Shown here: positions 17,190-51,196 of the stretch, in pieces
How the letters are laid out: each line of letters opens with the position of its first letter
Position numbering within the stretch: the stretch's first letter is position 1
Origin: Escherichia coli
GTDB taxonomy: Bacteria; Pseudomonadota; Gammaproteobacteria; Enterobacterales; Enterobacteriaceae
Assembly: GCF_009931435.1 (NCBI RefSeq)
Contig: NZ_CP043414.1
Direction: 5' to 3' (one strand)
DNA length: 64,000 nucleotides
Notes under the pieces: model-generated
Databases searched by the model: none
What the model was told of the DNA's origin: nothing
The model's input: only the letters and a program-made list of their open reading frames with translations
Position numbers and translations under genes: made by a program

Positions 17190-18473
17190 ATGCAACTTAC
17201 CAACGAAGAACAAGTACAGATTGCTCGTATAAAAGAAAAAATCCCACGCATTGCCGCACTGGATCCTGAATGTAAGTTATTCGGTTCTGAAGGTTGGAAA
17301 TATCAATGGCCGAAGCCTGCCAGCGAGGCGGAAATAGCTTCCTGGGAGAAAAAACATAGCGTCACTTTGCCACGGGAATATCGAATTTTTCTTCGCTATA
17401 TCGCTAATGGCGGTCCGGCACATGCCTACGGTCTTGAATCTTTAGGCGGTACAGATATTTATGGCGATATAACAAAAGAAAGCCCTGTACCGCTTTATAT
17501 GACGCAGCAGGATGTTGATGTGTTGAATGCTGGCCGTACAGAAGATGATGAAGAATATAGTTTTTTTGACGGCGCATTGACCATTCTCACCCTGGGATGT
17601 ACTTATGATATTTGCCTGGTGGTGACGGGGCAGTATCGCGGAAGGTTAATGCTGACTGATGGTGATGAAGATTATCCGTTTGATTTTATATATGATAAAA
17701 ATTTCCTCAACTGGTATGAACGCTGGCTGGACGATTTTATTGCTGGCATGAGTATGAAGGGTTTCGATAGAAGTTTGCCAGGAACGCAAATTCAACTGCG
17801 TGAGTGGTTTTTAACTGAGAAAATCCCGGATTTACGTAGATCCATTTTATTCTCGCTATGCCGTTTTCCACAGATAGAACCCGAAACTTTTGCCCTTTGG
17901 GAACATGTTTGCCGCACAGAGAATGATAAAGAATTGTGTGAAGAGGCATTCATAAGATTACGCCAAAAAAAAGTTTCTTGTGCTGCAGATATTTTTCGAC
18001 TCTATTTTACAATGCCAGATGAATTACGTGATATTGCTATTAAAGATCTCCGTTTTGCCTGTAGAGATAGTGTGGTGAATATTGAGGATTATATTCATTC
18101 ACTGTTAATAATAATGCCTGAACTTGACGATGACACTCTATCCTCAGCTGTCTTTGCTATACGAGAAACAGAGTATAATAAATATGATACTTTTCTGCCG
18201 CTTCTCGAACGTATCACTGATGACCGTCAGCAAACATTATTGTGGGCGATGAGTAAGGTGCCTGATTTCAATGAAAGCCGAGGATTCGTTGAGTTGGTAT
18301 TACCGCTTTTTGCATCATCAAAGATGGAGAATGTAAGGAAGGCTATTTTGTTGCTCATTGAAGTTAAAGATAATCGTATTCCACCATTGGTTGATGAAGC
18401 TGCAACTCGTTTCCCTGAACTGACCATTTTACGAGAAAACTACTATCTCAGGACGTGGGGACATAAGCCATAA
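17190..18473 (+). CDS. SMI1/KNR4 (SUKH-1) domain protein with C-terminal helical-repeat extension; accessory cassette gene 1
   Basis: ATG at 17190 preceded by AGGA; N-terminal roughly 190 aa carries SUKH-1 hallmarks (WEKKHSVTLPREYRIFLRYIANGG ... FLNWYERWLDDFI); C-terminal roughly 230 aa is leucine-rich and helical; region visibly AT-rich. Confidence 0.7.
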   Translation: MQLTNEEQVQIARIKEKIPRIAALDPECKLFGSEGWKYQWPKPASEAEIASWEKKHSVTLPREYRIFLRYIANGGPAHAYGLESLGGTDIYGDITKESPVPLYMTQQDVDVLNAGRTEDDEEYSFFDGALTILTLGCTYDICLVVTGQYRGRLMLTDGDEDYPFDFIYDKNFLNWYERWLDDFIAGMSMKGFDRSLPGTQIQLREWFLTEKIPDLRRSILFSLCRFPQIEPETFALWEHVCRTENDKELCEEAFIRLRQKKVSCAADIFRLYFTMPDELRDIAIKDLRFACRDSVVNIEDYIHSLLIIMPELDDDTLSSAVFAIRETEYNKYDTFLPLLERITDDRQQTLLWAMSKVPDFNESRGFVELVLPLFASSKMENVRKAILLLIEVKDNRIPPLVDEAATRFPELTILRENYYLRTWGHKP

Positions 18474-18510
18474 ATTAATGGTTCAGAAATGATCTAACGC
18501 GGAGAAAAAT

Positions 18511-19041
18511 ATGATCAGGGAACATATTCAGCAAGCGATAAATAATAGGTTAGCATTTGATGGCCCATTCAATGTTGTTCCTGAACCTGCAAGCACTGCG
18601 TTTGATAGCCGGATCCCGACATTGAAAAACGGTGTCTGGCAGAAGGCCAGCCCTATGTTGCAGGCGCGTTTTGCACATTGTGGACGTTGGTTAAGCGCTA
18701 CACATGGAAGCTGGCTAAGTATAAGTGACATGGAAACGCTTTGGCAGGAACACATAGAAGATACGTTTCTTGATGAAATCAAAATGAATGCTGTAGCTTC
18801 AAGTGATAATTGGGATAACCATGCCTTGGGACTATTTCGTTCTCATCGCCTGTCACTTTTTGCCGGTAGTGATTACAGTTATGAGATGGTTTTTCTCCTT
18901 TGGCTAGATAGTACCGTTGAGCCAGAGGTCTGGGTTTATGACTGCAATGGGGAATCACGTTATAAAGATCTTAATGATTACCTGAATGCATATATTAATG
19001 ATGACGTAAGCGCCTGTGAGCGCTCCTGGCGAGTAGAATGA
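18511..19041 (+). CDS. hypothetical protein, possibly immunity-like; accessory cassette gene 2
   Basis: 176-aa ORF, ATG with GGAG RBS 7 bp upstream; 37 bp after gene 1; no TM segment seen; family not recognised. Confidence 0.55.
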   Translation: MIREHIQQAINNRLAFDGPFNVVPEPASTAFDSRIPTLKNGVWQKASPMLQARFAHCGRWLSATHGSWLSISDMETLWQEHIEDTFLDEIKMNAVASSDNWDNHALGLFRSHRLSLFAGSDYSYEMVFLLWLDSTVEPEVWVYDCNGESRYKDLNDYLNAYINDDVSACERSWRVE

Positions 19042-19664
19042 ATAGCCCCCCTTGCCCCTTTGATCCACAAACCGCACATTACCTCGGTACAGTGCAAATC
19101 CACTACACCTCAACCACCTTCAACGCTGCCGTTAAGCATTATACCTGTTACATTAAAAAGCGTTTTAAAGGGGTTAAATGGGGAATTGGTACCGCTGGCT
19201 TATTGGCTATATTGCCCATGATCCCACAATGGTTGAAACCTTCTCATGACTTTAAACTCAACGCAATCAGTACGTTAATTCTTCTATTAATGTTGCCACT
19301 CCTCTTATCAATGTTCCTGTTAATCAGCAGAAGAATTAACGATTTTAAGTCAAAAACAAAGCAAGTTACTTTTACGAAACCCGTGCGTTATGCGTTTTAT
19401 TTCGAGGGGATTGTTTTTTATGAATCTCATCAGCAGGGCATACTTCGCTGGGAAGATTTTTATAGCATTGAGTATGAAGAAGATTATTTGTGGCTTTTTC
19501 TGCATTTACCGAAGAGTTGGCCCAGAGAAGCGACGAAAGCGTTTTGCGATATTTTCATTCCCACCAGCGCGATAAAAGCGCAGCCTGAACTGGATACGTT
19601 TTTTCGTGAAACACGCCACTCGCTGGATTATCTGTTTGTCCCGTTTAATTCTGACAGAAAATAA
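19038..19664 (+). CDS. two-TM membrane protein with C-terminal soluble domain (YcxB/bacterial PH-like by eye); accessory cassette gene 3
   Basis: 208-aa ORF; start overlaps gene 2 stop by 4 bp (ATGA); two hydrophobic helices (WGIGTAGLLAILPMIPQWL; AISTLILLLMLPLLLSMFLLI) then about 100-aa soluble tail. Confidence 0.55.
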   Translation: MNSPPCPFDPQTAHYLGTVQIHYTSTTFNAAVKHYTCYIKKRFKGVKWGIGTAGLLAILPMIPQWLKPSHDFKLNAISTLILLLMLPLLLSMFLLISRRINDFKSKTKQVTFTKPVRYAFYFEGIVFYESHQQGILRWEDFYSIEYEEDYLWLFLHLPKSWPREATKAFCDIFIPTSAIKAQPELDTFFRETRHSLDYLFVPFNSDRK

Positions 19665-19700
19665 AAAATCCCCCGTATCTGGTGAAACGGGGGATTTCGT
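19662..19700 (-). terminator. rho-independent terminator of pck, also closing the cassette
   Basis: Stem tcccccgt/acggggga; on the minus strand it is followed by TTTTTTA; lies 3 bp after the gene 3 stop and 17 bp after the pck stop. Confidence 0.7.
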
Positions 19701-46902: not shown

Positions 46903-48207
46903 ATGGATCTGTATATTCAGATTATCGTGGTGGCGTGCCTGACGGGTATGACATCGCTTCTGGCGCATCGCTCGGCGGCTGTTTTTCATGACGGTATCCG
47001 CCCGATCCTGCCGCAACTGATTGAAGGCTATATGAACCGTCGCGAGGCGGGGAGTATCGCTTTTGGTCTGAGCATTGGTTTTGTGGCCTCGGTGGGGATC
47101 TCTTTTACCCTGAAAACCGGGTTGCTCAACGCATGGTTACTCTTTCTTCCTACCGATATCCTCGGTGTCCTGGCGATAAACAGCCTGATGGCGTTTGGCC
47201 TTGGTGCACTCTGGGGCGTACTGATCCTCACCTGCCTGCTGCCGGTAAACCAGCTGCTGACCGCGCTACCGGTGGATGTATTAGGTAGTCTGGGGGAATT
47301 AAGCTCGCCAGTGGTTTCAGCTTTTGCACTGTTCCCGTTGGTGGCGATTTTCTACCAGTTTGGCTGGAAGCAAAGTCTGATCGCCGCCGTGGTAGTGTTG
47401 ATGACCCGTGTGGTGGTAGTGCGCTATTTCCCGCATCTCAATCCGGAATCCATCGAAATCTTTATTGGCATGGTGATGCTGCTGGGGATCGCGATAACTC
47501 ACGACCTGCGTCATCGTGATGAAAATGACATCGATGCCAGCGGTATGTCGGTGTTTGAAGAACGTACGTCGAGGATTATCAAAAATTTACCCTATATCGC
47601 CATCGTAGGGGCGCTGATTGCCGCCGTTGCCAGCATGAAGATTTTTGCTGGTAGTGAAGTGTCGATCTTCACCCTGGAGAAAGCATATTCCGCAGGTGTA
47701 ACGCCGGAACAATCACAAACGCTGATCAACCAGGCGGCGCTGGCGGAATTTATGCGCGGGCTGGGTTTTGTGCCGTTGATTGCCACCACCGCGTTAGCAA
47801 CAGGTGTGTATGCAGTTGCGGGCTTTACCTTTGTTTATGCGGTGGGCTATCTCTCGCCGAATCCGATGATTGCAGCGGTATTAGGCGCAGTGGTTATTTC
47901 GGCGGAAGTCCTGTTACTTCGTTCGATCGGCAAATGGCTGGGACGCTATCCATCGGTACGTAACGCGTCGGATAACATCCGTAACGCCATGAATATGCTG
48001 ATGGAAGTGGCGTTGCTGGTCGGTTCGATTTTCGCAGCAATTAAAATGGCGGGCTATACCGGATTCTCCATCGCGGTTGCCATTTACTTCCTCAACGAAT
48101 CCCTGGGCCGTCCGGTACAGAAAATGGCGGCACCGGTCGTGGCAGTAATGATCACCGGTATTCTGCTGAATGTTCTTTACTGGCTTGGCCTGTTCGTTCC
48201 GGCTTAA
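46903..48207 (+). CDS. yhfT: inner membrane transporter-like protein YhfT
   Basis: 434-aa polytopic membrane protein. Confidence 0.85.
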   Translation: MDLYIQIIVVACLTGMTSLLAHRSAAVFHDGIRPILPQLIEGYMNRREAGSIAFGLSIGFVASVGISFTLKTGLLNAWLLFLPTDILGVLAINSLMAFGLGALWGVLILTCLLPVNQLLTALPVDVLGSLGELSSPVVSAFALFPLVAIFYQFGWKQSLIAAVVVLMTRVVVVRYFPHLNPESIEIFIGMVMLLGIAITHDLRHRDENDIDASGMSVFEERTSRIIKNLPYIAIVGALIAAVASMKIFAGSEVSIFTLEKAYSAGVTPEQSQTLINQAALAEFMRGLGFVPLIATTALATGVYAVAGFTFVYAVGYLSPNPMIAAVLGAVVISAEVLLLRSIGKWLGRYPSVRNASDNIRNAMNMLMEVALLVGSIFAAIKMAGYTGFSIAVAIYFLNESLGRPVQKMAAPVVAVMITGILLNVLYWLGLFVPA

Positions 48208-48218
48208 GGAAGGCACCT

Positions 48219-49304
48219 ATGAAGACGTTTCCTCTGCAAAGCCTGACGCTTATTGAGGCGCAGCAAAAGCAGTTTGCGCTGGTGGATAGCATTTGCCGTC
48301 ACTTTCCCGGCGCGGAGTTTCTTACCCGCGGGGATTTAGGCTTAACGCCAGGGCTGAATCAACCGCGCATTACCCAGCGTGTGGAACAGGTGCTGGCTGA
48401 CGCGTTTCATGCGCCAGCGGCGGCGCTGGTACAGGGCGCGGGTACTGGAGCGATTCGTGCGGCGTTGGCGGCTTTGCTCAAACCGGGGCAGCGTCTTCTG
48501 GTGCATGACGCGCCGGTTTACCCGACGACTCAGGTCATTATTGAGCAGATGGGGCTGACGCTTATTACTGCTGATTTCAACGACCTGTCGGCGCTTAAAC
48601 AGGCCATTGAAGAGCAACAACCTGATGCCGCGCTGGTGCAGCATACGCGCCAACAGCCGCAGGACAGCTATGTGCTGGCAGATGTGCTGGCAACATTGCG
48701 TTCGGCTGGCGTTCCTGCGTTAACCGATGACAATTATGCGGTGATGAAGGTGGCGCGCATTGGCTGCGAATGCGGCGCGAATGTTTCGACATTCTCCTGT
48801 TTCAAGCTGTTTGGACCAGAGGGTGTTGGCGCAGTGGTAGGTGATGCCGATGTTATTAACCGGATCCGCGCCACGCTCTATTCCGGCGGCAGTCAGATCC
48901 AGGGCGCACAGGCGCTGGAAGTATTGCGTGGTCTGGTGTTTGCGCCAGTGATGCACGCGGTGCAGGCGGGGGTATCTGAACGGTTGCTGGCTTTACTTAA
49001 CGGTGGCGCAGTGGCGGAAGTGAAAAGCGCCGTTATTGCCAATGCGCAGTCGAAGGTGTTGATTGTGGAGTTTCATCAACCGATTGCCGCCAGAGTGCTT
49101 GAAGAGGCGCAAAAGCGCGGTGCCTTGCCTTACCCGGTGGGTGCAGAGTCGAAATATGAAATCCCGCCGCTCTTCTATCGACTTTCAGGAACGTTTCGTC
49201 AGGCGAATCCACAACTCGAACATTGCGCGATTCGCATTAACCCGAATCGCAGCGGTGAAGAGACGGTGCTGCGGATTTTGCGTGAGAGTATTGCCAGCGT
49301 TTAA
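48219..49304 (+). CDS. yhfS: PLP-dependent aminotransferase-like protein YhfS
   Basis: 361-aa ORF recognised as YhfS; last gene of the cluster. Confidence 0.85.
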   Translation: MKTFPLQSLTLIEAQQKQFALVDSICRHFPGAEFLTRGDLGLTPGLNQPRITQRVEQVLADAFHAPAAALVQGAGTGAIRAALAALLKPGQRLLVHDAPVYPTTQVIIEQMGLTLITADFNDLSALKQAIEEQQPDAALVQHTRQQPQDSYVLADVLATLRSAGVPALTDDNYAVMKVARIGCECGANVSTFSCFKLFGPEGVGAVVGDADVINRIRATLYSGGSQIQGAQALEVLRGLVFAPVMHAVQAGVSERLLALLNGGAVAEVKSAVIANAQSKVLIVEFHQPIAARVLEEAQKRGALPYPVGAESKYEIPPLFYRLSGTFRQANPQLEHCAIRINPNRSGEETVLRILRESIASV

Positions 49305-49343
49305 TTCTGGGACCGATGTTTTCGCAGAGTATGGAGAAAAATA

Positions 49344-49367
49344 CGCCCTCGGAAAATTCAGAGGGCG
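49344..49367. terminator. bidirectional terminator between yhfS and yhfL
   Basis: cgccctc ggaaaattca gagggcg between two convergent stop codons. Confidence 0.6.
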
Positions 49368-49408
49368 TTAGCTCATTAAATCGGTGTTAGCCGATTTCTG
49401 TCAGAGAC

Positions 49409-49576
49409 TTACTGTGCAGTAGGACCGCAACCGCCAATGATTTTAGAAATAGAAATTGCCGGGTGCAGCAGGTAGTCGTAAGAGCAGTTCTTATCACGGT
49501 TTTCAATATGACCAGTACATGCAGTTAACGTAGCCAGTACCGCACCAACCAGTGCAACTTTAATAAATTTGTTCAT
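49409..49576 (-). CDS. yhfL: small lipoprotein YhfL
   Basis: 55-aa ORF (below ORF-track cutoff) translated by hand: MNKFIKVALVGAVLATLTACTGHIENRDKNCSYDYLLHPAISISKIIGGCGPTAQ; lipobox LTAC. Confidence 0.85.
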   Translation of the reverse strand: MNKFIKVALVGAVLATLTACTGHIENRDKNCSYDYLLHPAISISKIIGGCGPTAQ

Positions 49577-49822
49577 TTACATTCCCTATGTATTATATAT
49601 TAATTAATATTCATTGATTATATGAATATAAGCAGACTGCTCATTAAGAACGATACAGGAATATTTAATTGGCGTCAGTGAGTGAATGACTTAATTTTGT
49701 AAGTCGCTGTAACGGTGAAAATAACCCATTAGCAAATGATATTTACTAAGAGGCTATGATTTATTTACTGAATATATAAAAAGAGTGATAAAGAGGGCCA
49801 GAATTCTCTGGCCCGGGTAAAA

Positions 49823-51196
49823 TTAATGGTTAGAGAACCAGTTCAATTTATCGCGCAGGCCAACGACCCGACCAATAATAATTAATGAGGGGCTGTTCAT
49901 TTGCTGCGCCAGCTCGCCCAGTTGCGTGAGCGTACCGTCAATCACGCGTTGCGTTACCGCCGTTCCGTTTTCGACAATTGCCACCGGCATTTCGCCAGGC
50001 ATACCGTGTTCAATCAGCTTTTGCTGAATAGTCGCGGCCTGATTCAACCCCATATAGAACACCAGCGTCTGTTTTTCTGCCGCCAGGTTTTCCCAGTCCA
50101 GTTCGCCACCGGTTTTTAAGTGTCCGGTAATTAAGCGTACGCTCTGGGCATAATCGCGATGCGTGAGCGGAATGCCCGAATAGGCAGAGCAACCAGACGC
50201 TGCGGTAATACCTGGAACCACCGAGAATGGAATGCCTGCATTGCACAGTGTTTCCAGCTCTTCGCCACCACGGCCAAAAATAAACGGATCGCCGCCTTTC
50301 AGCCGCACCACGCGTTTGCCTTTTTGCGCTTCCCGCAGCAGGATCTGGTTAATCTCTTCCTGCGGTACGCAGTGGTATCCCGCGCGTTTACCGACGAAGA
50401 CACGATCCGCATCGCGCCGTACCAGATTCATAATATCGTCTGAAACCAGACGGTCGTAGACCACCACATCTGCCTGCTGAATTTGTTGCAGACCTTTCAG
50501 CGTCAGCAGACCGGCATCGCCCGGACCTGCGCCAACCAGCACCACTTCACCGCGATGATCGAGCGGTTCATTGATTAACTGTTCGGTCGTTTCGGTAATG
50601 GCTTTCTGATCGTTGTTCGCCAGCGACTGCGCCAGGCGATCATTAACGAACAGTTTTTCCCAGAAACGGCGACGTTCACCCATCGTGGCGAACTGTCGTT
50701 TGACCCGACCGCGTAACTGCCCCGCATATTTTGCTACCTGGCCGAGATGCAGCGGCAGCAGTGATTCAAGTTTTTCGCGCAACAGTCGCGCCAGAACCGG
50801 AGAGGTGCCGCCAGAGGAGACCGCTACCATGAGCGGGGAGCGGTCAATAATCGACGGCATAATAAAGCTGGCGGCTTTCGGCGCATCGACCACGTTACAG
50901 AAGATACGACGAGATTCGGCGGCTTCGCTGACGCGCTGGTTAAGCGCGTCATCATTCGTCGCCGCAATTGCCAGCCAGCAGGTGTCGAGAAGGCTTTCAT
51001 CAAATGGCCCTTCGACGAGGGTTAACATGCCTGCATCTGCCCATGCGGTGAACTGTGGAATAAACGCTAATGCATTCACCGTTAAGCGAGCACCTGCGTC
51101 TAACAGCAACCTTGCTTTGCGTTCCGCGACATCACCACCGCCGACAATCAAACAGTCGCGGTCGCGTAATTGGCAAAATATAGGCAAATGATCCAC
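49823..51196 (-). CDS. cysG: siroheme synthase
   Basis: 457 aa recognised as CysG. Confidence 0.95.

Follow-up and report, generated by a model that had tools for sequence, protein, structure and literature searches.

The 104-bp spacer between the convergent genes yhfS and yhfL (positions 49305–49408) is the unoccupied counterpart of the site at which E. coli K-12 carries the fructoselysine operon frlABCDR. It is very probably an ancestral spacer that was never filled, with the frl genes having been inserted in K-12-type genomes and the empty allele having been kept in the lineage of the window, i.e. of the whole 64-kb stretch of DNA that was analysed. What is new here is this predicted polarity: the comparison with related loci argues for an insertion of frl into an ancestral spacer rather than for its loss from the frl-less strains.

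The left neighbour of the spacer, yhfS (48219–49304, plus strand), is an open reading frame of 361 aa for a PLP-dependent aminotransferase-fold enzyme. It is the final gene of the yhfZ-yhfS cluster and ends with a TAA stop codon at 49302–49304. On the right side and on the minus strand, yhfL (49409–49576, stop codon at 49409–49411) encodes a DUF4223 protein of 55 aa (Pfam PF13978, E=5e-38). Past yhfL, the window continues with the siroheme synthase gene cysG (49823–51196, minus strand; NCBIfam equivalog NF007922, 630 bits), which was used as right-flank anchor, and then with nirC, nirD and nirB. Compared to the K-12-type proteins, the amino acid identity was 96% for YhfS, 100% for YhfL and 99% for CysG, and yhfS, yhfL and cysG are annotated at matching positions in the nearest public genomes. 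An earlier, sequence-only reading of this DNA had placed the yhfS stop at 49304 and the yhfL stop at 49409, about 100 bp apart, and these coordinates proved to be exact with regard to both the open reading frames and the sequence. The spacer itself was delimited by its sequence and by the alignment of its relatives. No Rfam match was obtained at E≤1 across 49000–49900, and a promoter scan of the spacer found none.

It had also been claimed that the frl genes are missing between yhfS and yhfL. This was borne out by the length of the junction and by a tblastn search in which the five K-12-type Frl proteins were compared with all 64 kb of the window and no frl was detected (best E=0.24). The K-12 order given in that reading, with frlABCDR between yhfL and yhfS, is correct: in the K-12-like locus used for comparison (L002), the annotated genes are yhfT, yhfS, frlR, frlD, frlC, frlB, frlA, yhfL, cysG and nirC, with the frl genes on the opposite strand, and the frl DNA of this locus is 100% identical to that of K-12 MG1655. 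When the junction was aligned with this K-12 arrangement by blastn, as the same reading had suggested, the homology ended at 49310 and restarted at 49331, corresponding to 3757 and 8993 in L002. Thus, 5,235 bp in the K-12-type locus stand against approx. 20 bp in the window at the same place. In K-12-type genomes, the 5,235-bp frl segment would have taken the place of the stretch 49311–49330 of the ancestral spacer, with an uncertainty of about 10 bp at the breakpoints.

The frequency of both states was determined in 5,426 complete RefSeq E. coli genomes, and the empty state was counted when a contiguous match covered at least 80% of the junction query. An empty contiguous yhfS-yhfL junction was present in 2,107 genomes and frl coding DNA in 3,300 (∼61%), in 3,297 of which the match extended over ≥80% of the frl operon query. 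The frl DNA was chromosomal in every case and never on a plasmid, and it occurred at one place per genome, rarely at two. Since the two counts add up to 5,407 of the 5,426 genomes, the empty and the occupied state look mutually exclusive; the leftover genomes are variants, for example with IS insertions or partial deletions. According to these counts, frl-less junctions go together with frl-less genomes, and the remainder of this genome presumably lacks frl as well. The sequence-only reading was hence right in describing the locus as a presence/absence polymorphism. Being common and published, this polymorphism is already known: Fang et al. 2018 reported B2 strains without the frl operon and its transporter (PMC5996543), and a preprint of 2025 gives the missing degradation of fructoselysine and psicoselysine as a hallmark of B2 (10.1101/2025.09.14.675865). 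That an assembly collapse or a mis-join merely dropped frl from the window is next to inconceivable, as the junction was found in 2,107 complete genomes and in near-identical form in three independent complete or near-complete relatives, while no support for such an artefact was found.

The ancestral state was approached by a survey of outgroups, in which species-representative genomes were scanned with YhfS and the genes downstream were read. None of the representatives exceeded 95% aa identity, and the survey was not exhaustive in that it missed E. fergusonii and the expected E. coli type-strain genome. yhfL directly follows yhfS in E. albertii, E. whittamii, Escherichia sp. MOD1-EC7003 and E. 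coli SCPM-O-B-8794, and either yhfL or cysG follows it in several Citrobacter, an Enterobacter, Buttiauxella, Cedecea and Klebsiella spallanzanii. Among the loci surveyed, frl was located at the site only in the K-12-like locus and in the divergent strain E69. The empty spacers of other Escherichia have a length of 108–115 bp and can be aligned from end to end, and the spacer of the window is homologous and collinear with them (nine empty alleles from at least five species-level lineages). Approx. 20–30 bp beside the yhfS stop are common to the empty spacers and missing from the occupied allele. When 49311–49330 was sought inside the K-12 insert, the best score of 22 did not differ significantly from that of shuffled sequences (19.2 ± 2.1). 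Given that these 20–30 bp are missing from the occupied allele, the empty allele cannot be produced by deleting the occupied one. Together with the collinear spacers and the states of the outgroups, this indicates that the empty site is ancestral and frl an insertion.

The junction of E. coli ECL27829 (NZ_OZ462646.1, 2103–2208 of L084) serves as the 'before insertion' counterpart of the K-12-like allele. Its empty spacer is situated on a K-12-like left flank with 99.9–100% identity, and the yhfS genes of both alleles share 99.9% identity. The boundaries that were derived from this genome are TATTTAAT on one side and GAAACAAATACGCC on the other, which enclose the 5.24-kb frl segment in one allele and about 30 bp of spacer in the other.

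A secondary loss, by which an frl-positive ancestor deleted the operon and left the 104-bp junction as a scar, is improbable in the light of these alignments. The position of frl at the same site in the deeply diverged E69 and K-12 would be in agreement with it, as would the identity of the E69 frl genes, which is about that of their flanks and hence speaks for an old occupied allele; furthermore, partial frl deletions and IS hits occur now and then in E. coli. However, the spacer is collinear and of similar length with those of E. albertii, E. whittamii and others, more distant genera likewise lack frl at the site, and the 20–30 bp which the occupied allele does not contain could only have been restored by a swap with an allele that was already empty. 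A deletion scar was also rejected on the basis of the sequence, as the filler of the spacer had no match above shuffled sequences in the K-12 insert and the two borders have no repeats of at least 8 bp in common.

In the favoured course of events, an ancestral spacer receiving frl, a segment of 5.24 kb with frlA-frlB-frlC-frlD-frlR would have replaced approx. 20–30 bp of spacer immediately past the end of the yhfL terminator. A REP-type repeat and another repeated element would have come in with the segment, and the sampled lineage, probably cryptic clade I, would have retained the empty allele. In the K-12-type locus, a REP-like palindrome is found together with a GGGGAGAGGGTTAGGGTGAGGGG-type element in the gap between frlR and yhfS (L002 3758–3905), and copies of either are present at a median of 8 places in each E. 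coli genome. Both are located within the inserted segment and are missing from the window.

The borders of the K-12 insert share no direct or inverted repeats of at least 8 bp and show no target duplication. There is no tRNA within 5 kb of the frl site, and the annotation of the K-12 frl segment lists the five frl genes only, without an integrase or IS. With 53.8%, its GC content is not anomalous compared to the flanks (52.6–53.7%). In the absence of repeats, a tRNA, an integrase or IS and a GC shift, the frl segment is not a classical mobile island, and a classical mobile genomic island was rejected as candidate because neither an integrase or transposase nor a tRNA target nor repeats were present. 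Pantoea plasmids, e.g. pPSP-057 of Pantoea sp. PSNIH1 (CP010325.1, L087 6001–8772), carry frlB followed by genes for a fructoselysine kinase and a regulator, and their FrlB shares 87–88% aa identity with FrlB from E. coli. Such plasmids are a possible reservoir or route for the horizontal spread of frl.

With respect to the age of the two alleles, E69 (CP089930.1, L003 5286–10158) is a complication. It is labelled E. coli and is a separate GTDB species representative, and it has frlR-A at the same site. Its identity to K-12 in this region is ∼93%, with 92–96% for frl, similar to the flanks. Since the frl genes of E69 are about as diverged as their flanks, the insertion is either old or was moved between lineages by recombination in the flanks, and the assumption of one gain inside E. 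coli sensu stricto is too tidy. Among E. coli strains, yhfS and yhfT (46903–49304 in the window) have an identity of 89–96% in 200-bp windows, and the K-12-like yhfS and that of S8 are 90.9% identical. For cysG next door, the identity among the same strains is mostly 95–100%. The divergence of yhfS and yhfT could stem either from old alleles in linkage with the frl indel or from the import of DNA.

Taken together, E69, ECL27829 and the deep divergence of yhfS and yhfT suggest a long-lived polymorphism that has been exchanged by homologous recombination. A very old trans-lineage polymorphism, with alleles that predate species-level splits or are repeatedly exchanged by recombination, can only be proposed tentatively from these comparisons. 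If it existed, the utilization of Amadori products (adducts of sugars and amino acids, e.g. fructoselysine) would seem to be under long-term balancing or niche-dependent selection, and the frl operon may originally derive from a plasmid-borne cluster like that of Pantoea. Such exchange also bears on the question of whether the lineage of the window once had frl and regained an empty allele through homologous recombination with a donor that lacked frl. The empty and occupied alleles on the nearly identical flanks of ECL27829 and the K-12-like genomes demonstrate that exchange happens, and the unusual divergence of yhfS and yhfT among E. coli suggests old or imported alleles. Nevertheless, a replacement of this kind is very unlikely for the window, as it shares one 104-bp spacer with 2020CK-00188, 2013C-4282 and R32_14_1F on gapless flanks with 96.5–97.4% identity, and with no frl-positive member among these four genomes, vertical retention of the empty allele is the simpler explanation.

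Further variation was noticed to the right of the site. In Citrobacter koseri (L063 11400–17700) and Superficieibacter electus (L017 11300–18700), a large BigA-type autotransporter (Pfam BigA_beta, Autotransporter and BigA_N) is encoded in the 6–7 kb between yhfL and cysG, and several other genera lack yhfL altogether. From these segments and absences, it can be concluded that the yhfS-cysG neighbourhood varies repeatedly between lineages.

The lineage of the window was assessed by its identity to other genomes over 12 kb from cysG to yhfK. The best genome in the collection was 2020CK-00188 with 99.3%, followed by about 17 other genomes with 97.6–98.9%. The next-ranked genomes among the matches listed had 96.6%, and all 5,427 matching records were in a range between 95% and 99.3%. 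2013C-4282, with 98.5% identity to the window over these 12 kb, was assigned to cryptic clade I of Escherichia by Okuno et al. 2023 (PMC10100065), who gave ANI values of >98.3% between clade members and of >95.9% between the clade and E. coli sensu stricto. The identity to 2020CK-00188 amounts to 99.0–99.3% outside the yhf cluster and 97–98% inside, and the window is collinear with this genome over 1–43600 at 99.0%. The 104-bp spacer aligned without gaps and with one or two differences to 2013C-4282, R32_14_1F and 2020CK-00188.

Judged by these identities, the window probably belongs to Escherichia cryptic clade I, and with this placement the empty site would be common to the clade members examined. 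In a preprint with a 20-gene tree, 2020CK-00188 is positioned near E. fergusonii; given the 96.6% identity to typical E. coli, clade I is considered more likely than E. fergusonii. An origin from a less common lineage, probably cryptic clade I, would also explain that the junction is only ∼90–93% identical to the alleles of frl-negative E. coli. The statement that the strain is not K-12-like therefore holds, with ∼96.6% identity to most E. coli over the 12 kb and the closest similarity to cryptic clade I. As a side observation, three extra genes are annotated between envZ and pckA in 2020CK-00188, one for an SMI1/KNR4 family protein and two for hypothetical proteins. They map to approx. 17200–19675 of the window (L086 23813–26287), which is the region that had previously been described as envZ-pck cassette.

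The spacer comprises two hairpins, at 49343–49368 and at 49378–49397, and folds better than shuffled sequences on both strands (z = -2.7 and -2.9). The first one is part of the predicted intrinsic terminator of yhfL (49331–49368, minus strand), which consists of the stem-loop at 49343–49368 (ACGCCCTC...GAGGGCGT) and the following tract ATTTTTCTCCAT at 49342–49331. The stem has 8 GC-rich base pairs and two inner pairs and is followed by AUUUUUCUCC on the minus strand; together with this tail, ATTTTTCTCC, the hairpin looks like an intrinsic terminator of yhfL. Stem and T-rich tract are conserved in 11 out of 11 aligned Escherichia alleles, including the frl-positive K-12-like locus and E69. The core of 8 pairs is nearly invariant in these alleles and hence uninformative on covariation, and one inner pair occurs as GC, AU and GU variants with three double (compensatory) changes. 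Based on fold and conservation, the main hairpin can be considered as the putative Rho-independent terminator of yhfL. As it is also present in frl-positive K-12, it is no junction scar, but the ordinary end of the yhfL gene. A consensus terminator scan listed neither hairpin, probably because the 1x1 mismatch and the long loop of the main stem are outside the rules of the scan.

The second hairpin (AAATCGGT/GCCGATTT, 49378–49397) is richer in AT, abuts the yhfL stop and, according to its fold, is followed by CTGTC on the plus strand. Its pairs are kept across Escherichia with one-sided changes and one two-sided change, and it is possibly a weak terminator for yhfS. What follows the main stem on the plus strand is TAGCTCATTAAAT, in which there is no T-run, and this tail, TAGCTCATT, is a poor one for a terminator. 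In Citrobacter, a true form with A-run, hairpin and T-run is found at the same position (AAAAAACCGGG...CCCGGTTTTTTT). The sequence-only reading had seen nothing but a bidirectional terminator hairpin in the spacer. A terminator hairpin is indeed predicted; however, there are two hairpins, and the main one is only weakly bidirectional, since the poor T-run on the yhfS side does not support termination in both directions well.

Concerning the phenotype, the strain should be unable to take up or degrade fructoselysine or psicoselysine via the Frl route. This prediction is based on the Frl pathway of K-12 (Wiame et al. 2002/2004, as they are cited in PMC5996543), the regulation of which has been described for frlABCDR in K-12 (10.1101/2020.01.13.904318). 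In metabolic models, the trait is among those that separate B2/ExPEC-type E. coli from other phylogroups (PMC5996543; 10.1101/2025.09.14.675865), and the practical value of the locus lies in its use as a marker and in phenotype prediction. The finding is a real but ordinary and previously published polymorphism. The proposed polarity and the empty state shared by probable cryptic clade I genomes are added here, and the current understanding is unchanged.

Three known arrangements can be compared with the junction of the window. The K-12 frlABCDR locus resembles it in the gene content of its flanks, yhfT-yhfS and yhfL-cysG-nirC, and keeps the yhfL terminator hairpin. It differs by 5,235 bp of extra DNA, which consist of the five frl genes and the repeated elements in the frlR-yhfS gap, while the window has 20 bp of putatively ancestral spacer where K-12 has the frl segment. 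The frl-negative E. coli strains (B2 and others) have the same flanking genes, a collinear spacer of ∼104–114 bp, the same yhfL terminator hairpin and no frl genes; still, the spacer of the window is a distinct allele with 104 bp compared to 106–107 bp in the alleles of frl-negative E. coli. The junction of the clade I strain 2013C-4282 is from a different strain; its 104-bp spacer differs at 1 position and is embedded in a gapless alignment of 9.5 kb with 97.1% identity.
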